This document shows, one piece after another, positions 2,152 through 14,253 of a stretch of 64,000 nucleotides of DNA. This stretch comes from Escherichia coli (GTDB taxonomy: Bacteria; Pseudomonadota; Gammaproteobacteria; Enterobacterales; Enterobacteriaceae), in assembly GCF_003790525.1 (NCBI RefSeq), contig NZ_CP033635.1. The stretch is one strand, 5' to 3'. The translations under genes and the position numbers were made by a program. The notes below the pieces were generated by a model, which saw nothing but the letters and a program-made list of their open reading frames with translations, had not been told where the DNA came from and ran no database searches. Position 1 is the first letter of the stretch. Every line of letters begins with the position of its first letter.

Positions 2152-3903
<1,752 letters not shown>

Positions 3904-4968
3904 ATGAGTAAAGTGAAAAGTATCACCCGAGAATCCTGGATCCTGAGCACTTTCCCGGAGTGGGGTAGCTGGCTGAATGAAGAAATTGAACAAGAGCAGG
4001 TCGCCCCTGGCACATTTGCGATGTGGTGGCTAGGCTGCACCGGGATCTGGCTGAAATCAGAAGGTGGCACCAACGTTTGCGTTGATTTCTGGTGCGGCAC
4101 TGGCAAACAAAGTCACGGTAACCCGTTAATGAAACAGGGTCACCAGATGCAGCGCATGGCTGGCGTGAAAAAACTGCAGCCAAACCTGCGCACCACCCCG
4201 TTTGTTCTTGATCCGTTTGCGATTCGCCAGATCGACGCGGTACTGGCGACTCACGATCACAACGATCATATCGACGTTAACGTCGCTGCTGCCGTGATGC
4301 AGAACTGTGCTGATGACGTACCGTTCATTGGGCCGAAAACCTGCGTTGATTTGTGGATTGGCTGGGGCGTACCGAAAGAGCGTTGCATCGTCGTTAAACC
4401 GGGCGACGTAGTGAAGGTAAAAGACATTGAAATTCATGCACTTGATGCTTTCGACCGCACGGCACTGATCACCCTGCCTGCCGATCAAAAAGCAGCTGGC
4501 GTACTGCCGGACGGCATGGACGATCGCGCGGTAAACTACCTGTTCAAAACCCCAGGCGGTACCCTGTATCACAGCGGCGATTCCCACTACTCTAACTACT
4601 ATGCAAAACATGGTAATGAGCATCAGATCGACGTGGCTTTAGGTTCATACGGCGAAAACCCACGCGGTATTACCGACAAAATGACCAGTGCTGATATCTT
4701 GCGTATGGGCGAAGCGCTGAATGCGAAAGTGGTTATCCCGTTCCACCACGACATCTGGTCAAACTTCCAGGCCGATCCGCAAGAAATCCGCGTGCTGTGG
4801 GAGATGAAAAAAGATCGTCTGAAGTATGGCTTCAAGCCGTTTATCTGGCAGGTGGGCGGCAAATTTACCTGGCCGCTGGATAAAGACAACTTCGAGTACC
4901 ACTATCCGCGTGGTTTCGATGATTGCTTCACTATTGAACCGGATCTGCCGTTCAAGTCGTTCCTGTAA
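3904..4968 (+). CDS. ulaG: L-ascorbate-6-phosphate lactonase UlaG (metallo-beta-lactamase fold)
   Basis: [23 protein letters not shown]..., HDHNDH metal-binding motif, 354 aa. Confidence 0.93.
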
Positions 4969-7628: not shown

Positions 7629-9254
7629 TTACAAACACACTCCTCCCGTCGCCCGCAGCAATAAATCATTCTGGATCTGCTCTGACAACCGTACGCCGCC
7701 GCGCGTATCTAACATCACCTGACACCACGCCTGCGCCATTGGCGGAGAGGCATATTTCAACATTTGCGCACCGCAGCCCAGCAGGAATAGCTGATGAGTA
7801 ATCTCTCGCCCCAATTCTTCAGCTGGCTTACGCAGCTGCTGCTGTAAACGACGAACCGCGCGATCAAAATAGCGATCCTGCCCTTTCACTTCCACAAATG
7901 CTTCCGACAATAAGTCGTATACGCCCGCTTGCTTATTGAGAACGCGCAGCACATCCAGGCACATAATATTGCCGGAACCTTCCCAAATACTGTTTACCGG
8001 CATCTCCCGGTAAAGCCGCGGCAGCTCGCTCTCCTCGCAATAACCAATGCCGCCCAGCACCTCCATCGCTTCGGCCACAAACGGAATACCATGTTTGCAG
8101 ATCACAAATTTCGCCGCAGGCGTAAATAAACGCGCCCACAGAGCTTCTTTGGCATCGGCACGCCGGTCCCACGCTCGCGCAAGACGAAACAGCAACGCCG
8201 TTTGCCCTTCAAGCTGAAGCGCCATGCGACTTAAGACATGACGCATAAGGGGCTGTTGGATCAATGGATTACCAAAAACATGGCGTTGATGTGCATGATA
8301 AATCGCCAGCGAAAATGCACGGCGCATCATGGCATGGCTACCCAGGGCGCAATCAAAACGCGTCATCCCACCCATTTTCAGGATCAGACGAATTCCTTCC
8401 CCTTCCTGCCCCAACAACCAGCCAATGGCATCCTGAAACTCCACTTCGCAGCTGGCGTTAGAGCGATTACCCAGCTTATCTTTCAGCCGCTCGAGGCGAA
8501 TCGCGTTGCGTTGCCCGTCAGGCAAAAAGCGCGGCACAAAAAAGCAGGACAAACCGCCCGTAGTCTGCGCCAGCACCAGATGCGCATCGCTTTGCGGCAC
8601 CGAGAAAAACCATTTATGCCCCACCAGCCGATAAGAGCCATCTTCCAGGCGCTCTGCGCGGGTGGTGTTGCTCATGACATCGGAACCGCCCTGCTTTTCC
8701 GTCATTCCCATGCCAATCAACAAACCGCGTTTTTGCCCACCTGGCAATAAGTGAGAATCGTAGCGATCGCTCAACAGCGGCGTGGTCCAGTCCTGAAACG
8801 GCGCGGGTAACATCTGTAACAGCAATGGCGTGGCGGCAAAGGTCATCGTTATCGGACATAACGACCCAGCCTCAACCTGCGCATGTAACATAAAACGCGC
8901 CGCGCGCGCCACAAATGCGCCGGAGCGAGCGTCTTCTTCCCAGGCAAGATTGTGCACCCGATTGGTACATAGCGCCTGCATCAGCAGGTGCCAGGCGGGG
9001 TGAAAACGCACATCGTCCAGACGGCGTCCTTGCGCATCGTAGCGCAATAATTCAGGCGGATTCACATTCGCCAGCCGCCCCAGTTCAAGGGATTCAGCCG
9101 TCCCTAACTGCTGACCAATACTGGCTAGAAAATCGCTATCCCAGCCAGCACCTTCACGCGTTACCGCTTCGCAGAGCGCGCCATCAGACAGGTATAAATT
9201 GCTGTTATTTAATGGTATAGGTTGATTAAAAACGGTGTGAGTTTGCCAGTGCAC
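7629..9254 (-). CDS. aidB: isovaleryl-CoA dehydrogenase-like adaptive response protein AidB
   Basis: ORF 7629..9272, acyl-CoA dehydrogenase fold; probable GTG start giving 541 aa (VHWQTHTVFNQPIPL...). Confidence 0.9.
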   Translation of the reverse strand: MHWQTHTVFNQPIPLNNSNLYLSDGALCEAVTREGAGWDSDFLASIGQQLGTAESLELGRLANVNPPELLRYDAQGRRLDDVRFHPAWHLLMQALCTNRVHNLAWEEDARSGAFVARAARFMLHAQVEAGSLCPITMTFAATPLLLQMLPAPFQDWTTPLLSDRYDSHLLPGGQKRGLLIGMGMTEKQGGSDVMSNTTRAERLEDGSYRLVGHKWFFSVPQSDAHLVLAQTTGGLSCFFVPRFLPDGQRNAIRLERLKDKLGNRSNASCEVEFQDAIGWLLGQEGEGIRLILKMGGMTRFDCALGSHAMMRRAFSLAIYHAHQRHVFGNPLIQQPLMRHVLSRMALQLEGQTALLFRLARAWDRRADAKEALWARLFTPAAKFVICKHGIPFVAEAMEVLGGIGYCEESELPRLYREMPVNSIWEGSGNIMCLDVLRVLNKQAGVYDLLSEAFVEVKGQDRYFDRAVRRLQQQLRKPAEELGREITHQLFLLGCGAQMLKYASPPMAQAWCQVMLDTRGGVRLSEQIQNDLLLRATGGVCL

Positions 9255-9337
9255 TGTGTCTCCCTCCATCAATGGCAGTCACCATTAGTATGGTCACTGC
9301 CATGGATTCATGACAGAAAGAGATTGCTAAAACATTC

Positions 9338-10501
9338 TTATCCAGCAATGTAATGCGGAACGAAACGTGAGGTGTCTTTGGTGATCAACGTGTTATCTTC
9401 ACGGATCCCCATTCCGCACGCTTCATCATCGACAATCCAGCTACCGATGAGTGTGTAGCTATCGCCAAATCGCGGCAGAGGTTGAAACGCCTGGTAGATC
9501 ATCGGTTCATCGGCGTAATCACCATCAGCGTGGTCAACGACGTTATTCTGACCGTCGAAAATGGTGACGTTTCCGCCTTCGCGCGAGTAAATCGGTTTAC
9601 GCACATAGCTTTCGCCAGCGGCAATCTGCGGTTTTTCACCCTCAAACCAGGATGCAAGAAGGTTAGGATGACCAGGGAAGAAGCGCCAAAGCAGCGGCAT
9701 TAGCCCTTTATTACTCAAGATACTTTTCCATAACGGCTCCACCCATTGCTCACGACGCTTGCGCAGCAGCGGACCGTTATCGTCACGCATCATCCACTCC
9801 AGCGGATACAGCTTAAATGCACGCTGGATGACATTATCATCAAGATCGGTCAGTACTCCGCCGACGCCCAAACCGAGATCTTCAATGTAGATAAACCGCG
9901 ACTCCTGCCCTGCCTGCTGGGCGCAGTCCTGCAAGTACAGCACGGTACTCCTGTCTTCATCGGTGTCCTGACAGCAGCAAAAATAAAACGGTTCCCGACT
10001 GTAAAGCTCACTAAAGCGCGAAATCAGGCGTTCCTGAATGGCATTGTACTGATCGGCATCACGCGGAATAACGCCGCTGCGCCGGGCATCTTCCAGCCAC
10101 AACCACTGGAAATAAGCCGACTCGTACAATGAAGTTGGCGTATCGGCGTTGTACTCCAGCAACTTAACCGGTGCATTACCACACCAGGCAAAATCCATAC
10201 GGCCATACAACGAAGGATCGCGTGCGTGCCAGCTTTCGGCGATCACATCCCAGTACAACGGCGGGATCGCCAGTTGCGTCAGGATCTCTTCATCTTTAAC
10301 CGCACGATCCACCACCTCCAGGCACATCTGATGCAGTTCCGCAGTCGGTTTTTCGATCTGCTCTTCAATCTGGCGCAAAGTAAAGCGATAAGCCCGACTC
10401 TCATCCCAATAGATTTCATTGTCGATGATATGAAAGTCAAATCCGTTATCGGCGGCAATCCGGTCCAGATCCCGCCGCACAGGAACGTTGTGTCTCAGCA
10501 T
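9338..10501 (-). CDS. yjfC: glutathionylspermidine-synthase-like ATP-grasp protein YjfC
   Basis: ORF 9338..10516, trimmed to MLRHNVPVRRDLDRIAADNGFDFH... (387 aa). Confidence 0.88.
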   Translation of the reverse strand: MLRHNVPVRRDLDRIAADNGFDFHIIDNEIYWDESRAYRFTLRQIEEQIEKPTAELHQMCLEVVDRAVKDEEILTQLAIPPLYWDVIAESWHARDPSLYGRMDFAWCGNAPVKLLEYNADTPTSLYESAYFQWLWLEDARRSGVIPRDADQYNAIQERLISRFSELYSREPFYFCCCQDTDEDRSTVLYLQDCAQQAGQESRFIYIEDLGLGVGGVLTDLDDNVIQRAFKLYPLEWMMRDDNGPLLRKRREQWVEPLWKSILSNKGLMPLLWRFFPGHPNLLASWFEGEKPQIAAGESYVRKPIYSREGGNVTIFDGQNNVVDHADGDYADEPMIYQAFQPLPRFGDSYTLIGSWIVDDEACGMGIREDNTLITKDTSRFVPHYIAG

Positions 10502-10503
10502 GA

Positions 10504-11142
10504 TTAGCCTCCCCAATGCCCACGGGCGCTGGAAGAACGACCATAGCCGCCGCGAGAAACGGTTGACGCTTTTTTGGTGGTAAAGCCGCCCGAAGAGTAA
10601 GACTCTTTTTTGCCAGAACCGGAGCGCCAGGAGTAATCACCGGAAGTGTTGCGCCAGACGGGGCGGGAAGCAAATGAGGATCCGCCGCTGTTATAGACGA
10701 ACGGCTCATCGCGATCTTTACGAATAACCCGGCTTAACAAAAATCCAGAAACGACCGGGATCCAACTCTGTTCAACATTGTCGTAGTAACAATTTTCATA
10801 CTTAGACTGACAATTCTGCTGAGTCATATTCTTCGGAACATCGGCATAAAACGCCGCTTTGGCGTTGTTCCAGCCATGAGCACAGATATCTGAATTATTA
10901 CCGTCATCAATACAATCCTGCACAGTCGAGTAAAACGTTCCGTCGCCGTCGTTATCGACATCGCCACTATCGCCACAACCTTTCAATACGAAAAAAGCGG
11001 CACCGCCCATTAGCGCCAACGTTAAGTATTTTTGTGCGTAGCGATTGCGACGCGGTTCAAAAGGATTATTCGGTCTGCCAATGCGACTGATCGCTCCGTG
11101 ACCAATTTTACTGTTATTTCTTGATTTGCGTTTTCTGGCCAT
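10504..11142 (-). CDS. yjfM: DUF1190 protein YjfM
   Basis: 212-aa ORF, basic N-terminus, Gly/Ser-rich C-terminus; operon position. Confidence 0.85.
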   Translation of the reverse strand: MARKRKSRNNSKIGHGAISRIGRPNNPFEPRRNRYAQKYLTLALMGGAAFFVLKGCGDSGDVDNDGDGTFYSTVQDCIDDGNNSDICAHGWNNAKAAFYADVPKNMTQQNCQSKYENCYYDNVEQSWIPVVSGFLLSRVIRKDRDEPFVYNSGGSSFASRPVWRNTSGDYSWRSGSGKKESYSSGGFTTKKASTVSRGGYGRSSSARGHWGG

Positions 11143-11151
11143 GATCGTCCA

Positions 11152-11550
11152 TTACCATGTCATACAAGCTGCGTTAAAAATACCACCAGCCAGTGCGGCG
11201 GTTCCCATAAACATTCCTGCTGCGGTATTGTGATTAATAATTTTTTCGCTTAATGCGGGCATATAAAGTCTGACGCCAGCAAAAACGAGTAACTGAATCA
11301 CCAGTGCAATCCCGCCCCAGGCGAAATAATCCGGAATACTCACCGCATTGATTGCCGCACTGGATAAGGGGATCACGTAACCCAACAATGTACCGCTGAA
11401 TGCCAGTGACGCCGCGGTATTATTGTTTTTGATTAATTGCCATTCGTTGTGCGGTGTAATTTTGGAGTAGATAAACAGAAAAATAATCACCATAGCCACG
11501 CCAATAAAAAAATAGGCGCTAAAGGCAAGAAGTGAATCCAGTATATGCAT
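11152..11550 (-). CDS. yjfL: DUF350 inner membrane protein YjfL
   Basis: 132-aa hydrophobic ORF MHILDSLLAFSAYFFIGVAMVIIFLF... Confidence 0.85.
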   Translation of the reverse strand: MHILDSLLAFSAYFFIGVAMVIIFLFIYSKITPHNEWQLIKNNNTAASLAFSGTLLGYVIPLSSAAINAVSIPDYFAWGGIALVIQLLVFAGVRLYMPALSEKIINHNTAAGMFMGTAALAGGIFNAACMTW

Positions 11551-11567
11551 CGTAAACGTCCTTGTAA

Positions 11568-12227
11568 TTAACCAATAATATGAAGTGATGTCAGTGGGAT
11601 ATCAACACCCAGCGCGCGCGAAAATAACCACTCCGGCTCGCCGAGATCGTTAAAAGATTCCTCACCATTTAACAGTAAATATTCACAGGTATCTTCGGTC
11701 ACCTGCCGTTCATAGCCCATGGTAAAATTATGCACTTCCCATTTGGCGTGGTTTTGATTTTCAACTTTTTCCAGCATATAGACGGGTTCGATATTCCCCG
11801 GTTCTTCGCTGTTAAAAAATCGCTGCCAGCGTTTTTCCTGCCAGTTTAAGGTTATAGCCCCCATCGCTTTGGCGTTGATCGCCTCGCGCCAGTGACTCTC
11901 TTTACTGATACCGTAGCTCTCTTCATAGACAAAGAGCTTGATATCATCAATGTCATCAATATTTTCGCCGCCGGTGGTATTGATTTGCAGAAACTCATCG
12001 CCTGAAGTGTAGTAGCGGAAAATCTGGCTACCGCCGCCCAGATCGATGCGGCTGACGGCGGCTACCGTAAATTCCTCACCCGGCAGCGCAATCAGCAATT
12101 CATCTTCCAGCAAACGAAACGCTAACGTGTCGAGCGTAAAGCCACTATTGAGATGAAGTCCCAGCGGACCACGAGCGATAGCAGGCTTATTATCCTTGCC
12201 AAACAGACGCTGGAAAAAACCAGACAT
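11568..12227 (-). CDS. yjfK: DUF2491 protein YjfK
   Basis: 219-aa ORF MSGFFQRLFGKDNKPAIARGPLGLHL... Confidence 0.85.
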   Translation of the reverse strand: MSGFFQRLFGKDNKPAIARGPLGLHLNSGFTLDTLAFRLLEDELLIALPGEEFTVAAVSRIDLGGGSQIFRYYTSGDEFLQINTTGGENIDDIDDIKLFVYEESYGISKESHWREAINAKAMGAITLNWQEKRWQRFFNSEEPGNIEPVYMLEKVENQNHAKWEVHNFTMGYERQVTEDTCEYLLLNGEESFNDLGEPEWLFSRALGVDIPLTSLHIIG

Positions 12228-12276
12228 ATTTTATCCTTATAATAGTTGCCAGCCTTGCAGTGAGGCTGGCAAAAAA

Positions 12277-12975
12277 TTACTCGCCCTGTTGGCGTTGCAG
12301 TCTTGCTAATACATCCTGGGCGATACTTTTATTGCTACCGCCAATTCCGGCTTCCGCCAGCTTTTCATCGAGATCGCGACCGTCTGCGACTTTTTCCAAC
12401 TGTGCGGCAGCATCCAGGCGAGCCTGACGTTCGGCCTGACGCGTTTGCAGGCGTTTTAAGGATTCTGCCGCTGTCGAAACGCTGGAAGATGCGCCAACGG
12501 TAGAGGTCGTTACAGCCTGTTGTGCACGCTGCATGGCTTCAGTGGCTTTAACGACTTCCATTTGCTGCTCAAACTGAGCGATACGCTGCGCTGTCGCTGT
12601 AACTGCTTTTTCCACGCCATCACGAGAGACTTCCAGATTCGACAACACTTGCTCTTCAGCGGTAATGAGATTCTCAAGGCGCGCGATTTCTTCAGCAACT
12701 TCGTTAATCAACGACGGATTCACGTTCTTGCTTAACGCTTCCAGCGCACGAGCTTCCAGACTGGCTTTGCGCTCACGTAAATCTTTCAGCTTATCGTGAC
12801 TTAATTTCACTCGCGCCAGCAGATCAACGCGAGATTTTCCGGCTTTATCGAGTTCAGCTTTAGCGTCACGAATATGCTGTTCCAGCATGCGCACGCCCTG
12901 GGTTTCTTCAATGGACTCTTCCGCCTGGGAGATAAACGATTTCCCCAGCGTAAATAAACTTTTTAAAATCCCCAT
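12277..12975 (-). CDS. yjfJ: PspA/IM30-family protein YjfJ
   Basis: 232-aa coiled-coil ORF MGILKSLFTLGKSFISQAEESIEE... typical of PspA/Vipp1 family. Confidence 0.88.
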   Translation of the reverse strand: MGILKSLFTLGKSFISQAEESIEETQGVRMLEQHIRDAKAELDKAGKSRVDLLARVKLSHDKLKDLRERKASLEARALEALSKNVNPSLINEVAEEIARLENLITAEEQVLSNLEVSRDGVEKAVTATAQRIAQFEQQMEVVKATEAMQRAQQAVTTSTVGASSSVSTAAESLKRLQTRQAERQARLDAAAQLEKVADGRDLDEKLAEAGIGGSNKSIAQDVLARLQRQQGE

Positions 12976-12993
12976 AAATACCCGTCCTTGTAA

Positions 12994-13395
12994 TTAGTGT
13001 GAATATTCTTCTGTAATTTCAGCCAGATCCAATGCGTTATCTACCAGCGAGGTTATCTCAAGCAGAATATCTTCAAGAGAAGATTTAAGCGATAACGCAC
13101 CGAAAACAATGTAATACTCTTCCTGTTGCACGCTGGAGATCCCTACCGATGACAACGGCATCATCTTCTGATTTCTTAATAAGAAGGTATTAAATTCATC
13201 TGGATTGCTGATACTACTTACCGGACAAATAAAGGTTTCGATGATCATTTGGCGGGAAGTAAAAAGAATATTGATTTGCAAATCGCCATAATCATTCATT
13301 TTAATAATTAATGCGCTTTCGCTATTTGTTACATCAATATTTTGTTCAGGTACAGTTTGCAGCGCCGTCGCCAGCGCCAACGGATTCCATGTCAT
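12994..13395 (-). CDS. yjfI: DUF2170 protein YjfI
   Basis: 133-aa ORF MTWNPLALATALQTVPEQNIDV... Confidence 0.85.
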   Translation of the reverse strand: MTWNPLALATALQTVPEQNIDVTNSESALIIKMNDYGDLQINILFTSRQMIIETFICPVSSISNPDEFNTFLLRNQKMMPLSSVGISSVQQEEYYIVFGALSLKSSLEDILLEITSLVDNALDLAEITEEYSH

Positions 13396-13471
13396 ATATT
13401 ATTCCATATAGATTAAGTTTAAATATTAATAAAATGAATATTTACAGTACGTAATTATCTTACCAGCTATA

Positions 13472-13505
13472 GACAAAAAAAAACCATCCAAATCTGGATG
13501 GCTTT
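13472..13505 (-). terminator. intrinsic terminator downstream of rlmB
   Basis: Hairpin ccatcca-aatc-tggatgg flanked by an A-run and a T-run (bidirectional potential) 17 bp after the rlmB stop. Confidence 0.75.
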
Positions 13506-13521
13506 TCATAATTCAGAGGAA

Positions 13522-14253
13522 CTAGCTGCGCTGACGAACCGCTTCAAATAAGCAAATTCCGGTTGCAACCGAAACGTTCAGGGAAGAAACACTTCCTGCC
13601 ATTGGGATGCTGATCAACTCATCGCAATGTTCACGGGTCAGGCGACGCATACCTTCACCTTCCGCGCCCATCACCAGCGCCAGGCGTCCGGTCATTTTGC
13701 TCTGATAGAGTGTATGATCCGCCTCGCCTGCCGTACCGACGATCCAGATATTCTCTTCCTGCAACATACGCATGGTGCGCGCCAGATTAGTCACCCGAAT
13801 CAGCGGAACGCTTTCTGCCGCACCACAGGCCACTTTTTTCGCCGTGGCGTTGAGCTGTGCGGAGCGATCTTTCGGCACAATCACCGCATGAACACCAGCG
13901 GCGTCCGCGCTACGCAGGCACGCGCCGAGGTTGTGCGGATCGGTTACGCCGTCGAGGATCAGCAGGAACGGTTGATCGAGCGAAGCGATCAGATCCGGCA
14001 GATCGTTTTCCTGATACTGCCGTCCTGGCTTCACACGAGCGATAATGCCCTGATGCACGGCACCGTCGCTTTTCTCGTCGAGATATTGGCGGTTTGCCAG
14101 CTGGATAACCACGCCCTGGGACTCAAGGGCGTGAATCAGCGGCAACAGACGTTTATCTTCACGGCCTTTTAAAATAAAGACTTCCTGAAAACGTTCAGGG
14201 GCGCGCTCCAGCAGGGCCTGCACTGCGTGGATGCCGTAAATCATTTCGCTCAT
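13522..14253 (-). CDS. rlmB: 23S rRNA (guanosine2251-2'-O)-methyltransferase RlmB
   Basis: 243-aa [33 protein letters not shown]..., SpoU family. Confidence 0.93.

Follow-up and report, generated by a model that had tools for sequence, protein, structure and literature searches.

Modular anatomy of the yjfIJKLMC operon of Escherichia coli, with a deleted potassium channel gene and a candidate substrate for the ATP-grasp ligase YjfC

The closest described relative of the locus discussed here is the PspA-CesT/Tir "third group" operon of Ravi et al. (2024), which, in the parts of that paper that deal with it, comprises a DUF2170-PspA dyad, an ATP-grasp enzyme resembling glutathionylspermidine (Gsp) synthetase, a K+ channel, and proteins of the DUF350, DUF1190 and DUF2491 families, with DUF1190 considered to be a metal-chelating lipoprotein and DUF2491 a predicted enzyme (PMC11237479). 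The same system is found in Escherichia coli as six genes, yjfI, yjfJ, yjfK, yjfL, yjfM and yjfC, all on the minus strand at positions 9338-13395 of a 64,000-nucleotide stretch of the E. coli chromosome (the window; contig NZ_CP033635.1), here without the K+ channel. Our survey of 80 loci independently reproduces the operon type of Ravi et al. and adds to it a nested hierarchy of gene sets, a Gly-Gly terminus on the DUF1190 proteins and a proposed substrate relation between these proteins and the neighboring ligase, none of which is described in the parts of their paper that concern this operon. The locus itself is an ordinary, already described E. coli operon; what is new is its modular anatomy, a channel-deletion polymorphism and a concrete hypothesis for the substrate of YjfC.

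Several members of the operon have a published record of their own. The YjfC of the window corresponds to the structures deposited as "Putative acid-amine ligase YjfC" (PDB 7UK6/7UK7; E=3.9e-273 over residues 1-387), and Pederick et al. (2023) are cited as having found in vitro peptide-spermidine ligase activity for both YjfC and its paralog YgiC (PMC11762307, PMC12568646), just as Sui et al. (2012) are cited as having found both to be devoid of glutathionylspermidine synthetase activity (PMC11762307, PMC12506659); according to reviews, the physiological substrate of the two enzymes is not known (PMC11762307, PMC12568646, PMC12506659). The gene pairs ygiBC and yjfMC together aggravate the growth defect of tolC mutants (Dhamdhere and Zgurskaya 2010, as cited in PMC11762307). 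At the other end of the operon, Rychel et al. (2025) identified yjfIJKL as one co-regulated unit (iModulon), silent in all other PRECISE-1K samples, that is switched on in heat-evolved strains by a one-nucleotide deletion 80 bp upstream of yjfI (PMC12492005); activation of these four genes aids growth at 42-45 °C (PMC12492005, PMC11472167), and when it is driven from a plasmid the growth rate at 42 °C rises 1.21-fold (PMC11472167). The original prediction for this stretch, made from the sequence alone, had called the module functionally unassigned, which overstates the case given published structures and in vitro activity for YjfC, a published DUF2170 structure and the yjfIJKL heat phenotype; its remark that no mechanism has been established is still true.

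The survey took one genome per species and was anchored on an alignment of YjfC homologs, with partner genes identified by iterated hidden Markov models (HMMs) built from the E. coli proteins and the remaining flanking open reading frames (ORFs) clustered. In 78 of the 80 loci the gene just before the ligase gene is a DUF1190 gene, usually 0-10 bp away or overlapping, and a DUF350 gene lies directly upstream of DUF1190 in about 43; the block I-J-(K+ channel)-K precedes L-M-C in about 24, with order and orientation constant throughout, and in 23 loci a yjfI homolog directly precedes the PspA homolog. The species with the full order include Alteromonadales, Vibrio, Marinomonas, Endozoicomonas, Dyella and a Desulfurivibrionaceae metagenome-assembled genome (MAG), and the other architectures include about 33 loci of the tolC-ygiB-ygiC type, about 14 with L-M-C alone and 3 with the channel gene followed by L-M-C. 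At the very chromosomal site occupied by the E. coli operon, Siccibacter (L066) and an Enterobacteriaceae MAG (L004) carry rlmB-yjfLMC-aidB without I-J-K. The reciprocal view gives the same picture, in that distant DUF1190 proteins (24-34% identity; loci L083 and L086 among them) are again encoded between DUF350 and GSP_synth genes. The genes are co-conserved as a nested composite, M-C within L-M-C within I-J-(Kch)-K-L-M-C, in which an ancient M-C (or L-M-C) core and an I-J-(X)-K block have repeatedly come together or parted. When the ligases are clustered, the architectures are interleaved and an enterobacterial YjfC clade, the more divergent, stands apart from a larger group in which E. coli YgiC-type ligases fall together with the enzymes of marine full operons. 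Gene-neighborhood conservation was the check proposed for the idea of one six-gene module, and it bears the idea out as to co-conservation, the full order recurring as above, though not as to an indivisible block: the module is a nested composite and its six-gene form is derived.

That the six-gene form is derived is read from the position X between yjfJ and yjfK, which in 18 loci holds a gene of about 350 codons for a K+ channel with an Ion_trans_2 and a TrkA_N/RCK-like domain. Only 19 of 5426 complete E. coli genomes retain this gene, annotated as "potassium channel family protein"; in E. coli it overlaps both neighbors, the yjfJ stop at one end and the yjfK start at the other, and it is translationally coupled between them there and in Enterobacter sp. 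ENT03 (3571-4641 in locus L082, 3070-4140 in L002 and 7116-8186 in L090). The window has 46 bases in place of the 1071-bp channel gene, unrelated to the channel sequence of L002 and L082 and folding into a hairpin with a 10-bp stem (ΔG −19.7 kcal/mol, z −2.8) that is unique in the window and has no U-tract downstream. At the same site Enterobacter sp. ENT03 carries seven genes, and E. fergusonii and Citrobacter tructae carry six. The simplest reading is that a seven-gene operon is ancestral, that the channel has been lost repeatedly and that the window represents a six-gene derivative. E. coli alleles that bear the channel differ unusually strongly from the window in their flanks (dS 0.11-0.39). 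The polymorphism has a practical side, as the difference between channel-deleted standard E. coli and the 19 seven-gene strains, EC42405 (NZ_CP043414) for one, guides the choice of strain for experiments.

The ligase and its gene partner supply the third new point. PDB chains of Gsp synthetase (Gss) and trypanothione synthetase match YjfC at 1e-32 to 1e-37, the alignment covering only residues ~253 to 613 of Gss, without the N-terminal CHAP amidase domain, and against the NCBIfam equivalog model for Gss YjfC scores 163.7, far short of the cut-off of 882. The DUF1190 proteins encoded next to such ligases share a layout of basic N-terminus, hydrophobic anchor, acidic four-Cys domain, Met-rich hydrophobic motif (GSFFMPLMAGYMxG) and basic low-complexity tail, and with it a charge dipole, the acidic domain having a mean net charge of −7.3 and the S/G/R-rich tail one of +9.7. 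Within the tail an RGGFG motif, nearly invariant in the alignment and present in 98 of 122 family representatives, lies 10-40 residues from the end. The end itself is more constant still. Among the 76 survey proteins the penultimate residue is Gly in every one and the last is Gly in 71 and Ser in 5; position −3 is mostly W, M, F or Y, position −4 is Ser in 57, and tail positions further upstream have entropies of 2.5-3.4 bits. The residue at −3 also goes with the type of locus: it is Met in the ygiB type, and Trp or Phe in loci of the yjfM and full-operon types. When 1.84 billion cluster representatives (50% identity, about 15 billion proteins) were searched exhaustively with phmmer, 157 relatives came back, 122 of which, at least 150 aa long, are the representatives just referred to; 96 of them end in GG, 14 in GS, 3 in GE and 1 in GA, so that 110 of 122 end in G-[GS], and several of the exceptions are frameshifted fragments.

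Because the adjacent enzyme belongs to a family that joins a C-terminal glycine carboxylate to spermidine, and itself ligates spermidine to peptides in vitro, we propose the C-terminus of YjfM and YgiB as the physiological substrate. There is a eukaryotic precedent in the conjugates of spermidine with the C-terminal Gly-Gly of SUMO and ubiquitin (PMC12270671). An AlphaFold2 (AF2) model was made of YjfC fused through a 20-residue GS linker to the last 40 residues of YjfM, with 24 locus-paired sequences; it was judged by the per-residue confidence score (pLDDT) only, and no control fusion was run. The linker came out as disordered (pLDDT 30-38), and YjfM residues 186-205 (GFTTKKASTVSRGGYGRSSS) reached 75-80 with a beta strand at TVSR, so the model supports a predicted docking of the conserved tail motif (TxSRGGFG) on YjfC, which, if real, would require the two to meet in the cytoplasm. 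That the C-terminal glycine of YjfM is the physiological substrate of YjfC is put forward tentatively, and on balance we would still expect it to be wrong. The wider claim, that the DUF1190 proteins YjfM and YgiB are ribosomally made, membrane-anchored substrates whose Gly-Gly C-termini are amidated with spermidine by the adjacent YjfC and YgiC in a dedicated bacterial polyamination system, must for now be called doubtful.

The six ORFs of the original prediction, with their content, order and tight co-directional packing, are confirmed by the ORFs themselves, Pfam and the RefSeq annotation (Table 1). Each of the families it named was matched far above the Pfam cut-offs (DUF2170, PF09938, 1.5e-44; PspA_IM30, PF04012, 4.9e-58; DUF2491, 3.6e-70; DUF350, 1.3e-33; DUF1190, 1.3e-17; and, for the ATP-grasp enzyme, GSP_synth, PF03738, 6.3e-149). 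In the RefSeq annotation the six lie between rlmB and aidB and, as predicted, downstream of nsrR-rnr-rlmB; to this can be added the strand and a terminator between rlmB and yjfI.

Table 1. Coordinates of the genes and other features of the yjf locus in the window.
Feature	Position	Strand	Description
yjfI	13395..12994	minus	133 aa; DUF2170, CesT/T3SS-chaperone-like, cytoplasmic; predicted YjfJ partner or regulator
yjfJ	12975..12277	minus	232 aa; PspA/IM30/Vipp1 (bacterial ESCRT-III) family; presumed membrane-binding effector
yjfK	12227..11568	minus	219 aa; DUF2491; all-beta, no signal peptide; travels with yjfIJ
yjfL	11550..11152	minus	132 aa; DUF350; four-helix inner-membrane protein
yjfM	11142..10504	minus	212 aa; DUF1190; anchor, acidic 4-Cys domain, Met-rich motif, basic S/G/R-rich tail
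yjfC	10501..9338	minus	387 aa; ATP-grasp carboxylate-amine ligase, Gsp-synthetase family
rlmB intrinsic terminator	13507..13478	minus	12-13 bp stem, then T9 run 13483..13475; upstream module boundary
yjfI leader/promoter region	13396..13477	minus	AT-rich; promoter function inferred from published adaptive laboratory evolution (ALE) mutation
10-bp stem hairpin	12246..12272	minus	inside the 49-bp yjfJ-yjfK gap; site of the K+ channel gene in the seven-gene form
RGGYG codons (YjfM 197-201)	10540..10554	minus	conserved RGGFG tail motif; predicted YjfC docking site
Gly211-Gly212 codons (YjfM C-terminus)	10507..10512	minus	proposed acceptor carboxylate for spermidine ligation

The gaps between the genes, from yjfI through to yjfC, measure 18, 49, 17, 9 and 2 bp. 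The stretch 9200-13600 was found in 5425 of the 5426 complete E. coli genomes, several of them identical to it throughout, and 5326 have at least 80% of it in one place; in some strains (NZ_CP135712.1, NZ_CP190349.1) an IS1 insertion inside the module splits the match with about 777 bp of extra sequence. Measured against a divergent E. coli allele, the ratio of nonsynonymous to synonymous substitution rates (dN/dS) is 0.02-0.11 for all six genes (0.01 for rlmB), from which it follows that they are functional genes and not chance ORFs, and the strong intrinsic terminator after rlmB marks the module as a unit separate from nsrR-rnr-rlmB. The longest ORF for yjfC begins at a TTG at 10516, overlaps the yjfM stop and would give 392 aa; the annotated and crystallized start is the ATG at 10501. 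Between the yjfC stop and the aidB start, at 9268-9307, lies an 18-nt inverted repeat (89% complementary, 4-nt spacer, no T-run), just upstream of the aidB start codon (9254); it probably belongs to the regulation of aidB and not to termination of yjfC. A search of the region and its intergenic spaces against Rfam for structured RNAs and riboswitches gave no family match at E<=1. With the PADLOC models, five of the six proteins matched nothing and YjfJ gave coiled-coil noise (E ~1e-3), and an anti-phage defense system was ruled out for lack of any match.

The expression of the operon has to be pieced together from the published mutation and from its leader. We infer that the one-nucleotide deletion falls in the T9 run (13475-13483) of the rlmB terminator, and because this run is the terminator's U-tract, its effect could be read-through from rlmB or altered promoter geometry and not that of a classical promoter-up mutation. 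A sigma-70 consensus scan of the yjfI leader found no match above threshold, and no sigma-54 GG-N10-GC element of the kind reported for the bac operon of Pseudomonas aeruginosa was seen upstream of yjfI on reading the sequence. An 11-nt inverted repeat at 13420-13444 (TAAATATTAAT / ATGAATATTTA, 91% complementary), 25-49 bp upstream of the yjfI start, could be an operator and may equally be a product of chance in a region so rich in A and T. Consensus scans across the whole operon counted 4 promoters against 6.1 in shuffled sequence and 8 terminators against 5.1, and thus gave no excess of sites over shuffles that would point to internal promoters or terminators splitting the operon. Since yjfK and yjfL are co-induced by a mutation upstream of yjfI, transcription must pass the yjfJ-yjfK hairpin.

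The first four proteins can be placed with differing precision. For YjfI the solved structure of P. aeruginosa BacA (8Q8O_A) came up at E=4.4e-17 across residues 3-128, and the hit to the NCBIfam BacA model scored below that model's cut-off. BacA is a dimer resembling the CesT-type chaperones of type III secretion systems (T3SS), and its gene heads the bac operon before that of a PspA homolog (PMC10948618; the CesT-like fold also in PMC11237479); in a bacA deletion the other Bac proteins are more abundant, and an interaction between BacA and BacB has been reported, cited as unpublished (PMC10948618). By analogy, YjfI may bind YjfJ. A search for YjfI homologs, aimed at BacA-type operons, returned only close relatives in Escherichia, Citrobacter and Enterobacter. 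YjfJ spans the PspA_IM30 family over its full length (residues 2-232 against model positions 1-220), and a profile of 21 YjfJ homologs matches solved Vipp1 and PspA chains (8QBR, 8QBW, 6ZVR and others) at about 3e-11 over residues 1-227; the single sequence had no match to solved structures at E<=0.01. In the literature YjfJ is counted among the bacterial ESCRT-III proteins and called the least studied of them (PMC13051332, PMC5333519), and a 48-mer homology model of it exists (PMC12492005). Neither YjfI nor YjfK has a signal peptide, and the published suggestion that YjfK is an outer-membrane porin was ruled out on that ground together with the want of any significant porin match. Most YjfK homologs also end in glycine (...IIG, ...ING, ...IHG), less strictly than DUF1190. 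YjfL has four hydrophobic segments, as read from its sequence.

Two further genes accompany the module outside E. coli. In 12 species the full module has beside it a small gene for a rhomboid-family intramembrane protease (PF01694), which either follows the ligase gene directly or is divergent and upstream (6073-6627 in L063; the others include L009, L016, L018, L024, L030 and L034), and its product may process a membrane-anchored protein of the module such as DUF1190, whose Met/Pro/Gly-rich segment resembles a rhomboid substrate. A gene of about 96 codons (DUF6471), absent from E. coli, is divergently oriented upstream of the yjfI homolog in 10 species (for example 4069-4359 in L057) and is a candidate for a dedicated regulator.

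How might these parts work together? The explanation that we find best is a composite, two-layer operon for inner-membrane homeostasis and stress, although we would put its chances at somewhat below even. In the first layer, YjfJ would bind and stabilize the cytoplasmic face of the inner membrane in the manner of PspA and Vipp1; YjfI, a CesT-like dimeric chaperone, would bind and restrain YjfJ and feed back on expression of the operon; and YjfK, a predicted cytoplasmic all-beta protein, would accompany the pair, as ancestrally would a ligand-gated K+ channel. The second layer, the ancient core, would consist of YjfL with its four transmembrane (TM) helices, membrane-anchored YjfM and the cytoplasmic ligase YjfC, which would dock on the TxSRGGFG motif of the basic YjfM tail and, with ATP, amidate the C-terminal Gly-Gly carboxylate with spermidine by the chemistry that Gsp synthetase applies to the glycine of glutathione. 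The product would be a polyamine-tipped, membrane-tethered tail whose state couples polyamine, ion or envelope status to membrane protection, a coupling of the layers that is presumed; because the tail would sit, in the ancestral operon, beside a K+ channel and a PspA-type protector, the tethered polyamine could gate or block the channel or mark stressed membrane for YjfJ. In standard E. coli the channel is deleted and the operon is transcriptionally quiet as long as no mutation in the promoter region activates it; once expressed, it aids growth at high temperature. The original prediction had suggested a membrane-stress or small-molecule conjugation pathway; the general idea fits and was reached independently by Ravi et al. 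(PMC11237479), its mechanism being unproven.

A number of observations weigh against the two-layer reading, and the gravest concerns topology. Most of a DUF1190 protein is exported, given its signal-anchor or lipobox and its acidic four-Cys domain, whereas YjfC works in the cytoplasm and depends on ATP. Of the 76 DUF1190 homologs, 65 have a strict lipobox; it is degenerate or without Cys in the YjfM clade, where the site reads VLKGC in the window (Lys at −2), and VVKGW in the channel-bearing E. coli allele and VLRGN in Siccibacter, both lacking the Cys. Since the ligase needs cytoplasmic ATP, the model requires either that the Met-rich motif spans the membrane and the basic tail stays on the inner side, or that YjfM is modified before export. 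The positive-inside charge dipole favors a membrane-crossing motif and with it a presumably cytoplasmic tail, but its hydropathy is weak (KD17 ~0.9, and about +5 kcal/mol in a hand estimate on the Hessa scale). The presence of YgiC in inner-membrane proteomes is weakly consistent with the model. Natural DUF1190-ligase fusions were considered as evidence of topology and ruled out, the E. coli "fusions" of 548-601 aa being frameshifts in the yjfM tail; in the apparent fusions of 546-601 aa (P0001, P0002, P0049) the tail shifts into the yjfC frame, and because one such cluster (P0001) has 130 member sequences, tail-less yjfM alleles must circulate in the population. The fusion model, for its part, gave the last seven residues of YjfM (ARGHWGG) a pLDDT below 50, neither placing the Gly-Gly in the active site nor excluding it from there. 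It is because the topology objection stands that our confidence in the substrate proposal stays where it was put above. As to the first layer, YjfJ reportedly does not assemble into large rings as PspA typically does (PMC5333519). As to the link between the layers, the published iModulon holds yjfIJKL without yjfMC (PMC12492005), and the two layers may not be mechanistically coupled at all, because L-M-C and M-C are widespread without I-J-K.

This last consideration leads directly to the strongest rival, in which two independent units merely adjoin: a PspA-type set, yjfI-yjfJ-[K+ channel]-yjfK, and a polyamine-conjugation set, yjfL-yjfM-yjfC, with YjfC making a diffusible peptide- or metabolite-spermidine and YjfM being a lipoprotein sent out of the cytoplasm to bind either metal or the exported product, its Gly-Gly end serving a periplasmic purpose. 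Such independence is a real possibility, if not one we would call probable. L-M-C or M-C stands without I-J-K in about 50 of the 80 loci, including the Siccibacter and Enterobacteriaceae MAG loci at the same site, the paralogous ygiBC adjoins the gene of an export channel in the tolC-type loci, the CesT-PspA dyad combines with other partner sets in the parts of Ravi et al. that treat it (PMC11237479), and YgiB is found in vesicle proteomes; the lipobox and the four conserved Cys of DUF1190 and the restriction of the iModulon to yjfIJKL, given above, fall on the same side. What this view has to contend with is that about 24 species, distant lineages included, have I-J-(Kch)-K-L-M-C with its genes overlapping or nearly touching, and that the co-regulated unit yjfIJKL straddles the divide proposed between K and L (PMC12492005). 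A diffusible product, moreover, leaves unexplained the near-constant adjacency of ligase and DUF1190 genes, as well as the facts that the C-terminus is the most conserved part of a low-complexity tail and that a motif within that tail is ordered in the AF2 model.

Two other explanations are far less likely. Rychel et al. (2025) offered a picture in which YjfJ forms an ESCRT-III ring, YjfK a primitive outer-membrane beta-barrel porin and YjfL an inner-membrane hexameric channel, with YjfI as a periplasmic lipoprotein, and in which overproduction raises membrane protein density and viscosity in the heat or releases misfolded proteins. It rests on the rise of yjfIJKL in heat-evolved strains together with structure models (PMC12492005) and accords with the better growth at 42 °C under forced expression (PMC11472167) and with YjfL being a multi-pass membrane protein; we nevertheless think it highly improbable, since YjfK and YjfI lack signal peptides, YjfI is homologous to the cytoplasmic, CesT-like BacA (8Q8O), the model's own authors were unable to confirm that YjfK inserts into the membrane (PMC12492005), and both yjfMC and the conserved K+ channel are left out. 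It could also be supposed that the operon is a decaying remnant in E. coli, silent, deprived of its channel, drifting toward pseudogenes and without any present role. The absence of an inducing condition in more than 1000 RNA-seq samples other than the promoter mutant (PMC12492005) would fit this, as would the deletion of the channel in all but 19 genomes, the circulating frameshifted yjfM alleles and the IS1 insertions, yet a remnant is very unlikely to be so nearly universal in the species, under such constraint in all six genes, kept in its six-gene form in E. fergusonii and Citrobacter, and beneficial when expressed at high temperature (PMC11472167).

The locus is of interest for several reasons. 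It encodes, in YjfJ, an almost unstudied protein that is the second of the ESCRT-III/PspA type in E. coli, and the metabolic collapse of tolC mutants, itself unexplained, is linked to the ygiBC and yjfMC pairs. If the substrate proposal were true, the question of what YgiC and YjfC act upon would reduce to mass spectrometry of two C-terminal peptides, C-terminal polyamination would be a new bacterial protein modification, and there would be a handle on the links among polyamines, K+ flux and PspA-type membrane repair.

Among known systems, pspF-pspABCDE and LiaIH share with the yjf locus a PspA/IM30/Vipp1 effector, small membrane proteins alongside it and a phenotype linked to envelope or heat stress. 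They differ in that the yjf locus has no PspF, PspB/C or LiaI/FSR among its neighbor genes, the partner being a CesT-like chaperone instead; in that YjfJ is the most divergent member of the family, with the different ring behavior already mentioned; and in that the yjf effector comes with a set of genes for polyamine ligation and, in the ancestral form, with a K+ channel. The Bac system of P. aeruginosa (bacABCDEF; BacA = PA3732, BacB = PA3731) likewise begins with a DUF2170 gene followed by a PspA homolog; according to the literature its downstream genes are different, no Gsp-like ligase is noted among them and its phenotypes concern biofilm and rhamnolipid (PMC10948618). The nearest relative of the core is tolC-ygiB-ygiC, with the same two genes at the same spacing, a YgiB that ends in ...SMGG and has the RGGFG motif, and a YgiC (structures 7UK8/7UKA) cited, like YjfC, for peptide-spermidine ligase activity (PMC11762307). 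It lacks DUF350, PspA, DUF2170 and DUF2491, adjoins tolC, has an ygiB that is induced by the Cpx envelope-stress response, and has a canonical YgiB lipobox, in contrast to the YjfM clade, where it is degenerate or absent.

The chemistry has its model in Gss and trypanothione synthetase, whose homologous ATP-grasp domain forms an ATP-dependent amide between a C-terminal glycine carboxylate and spermidine; YjfC differs from Gss in having no CHAP amidase domain and, as cited in reviews, in being inactive with glutathione (PMC11762307, PMC12506659). RimK-S6, Pup-PafA and the SUMO and ubiquitin Gly-Gly-spermidine conjugates can be likened to YjfM-YjfC by analogy only, through the proposed ATP-dependent ligation on a conserved, disordered C-terminal end; PafA and the E1/E2 enzymes are of other families than YjfC, and YjfM would be a membrane-anchored substrate encoded beside its ligase. 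The feature that marks pairs of the RimK-S6 and PafA-Pup type, an extreme C-terminus that is conserved and linked to a ligase gene, is found in YjfM-YjfC as well, with G-[GS] at the end of 76 of 76 proteins and the two genes adjacent in 78 of 80 loci.

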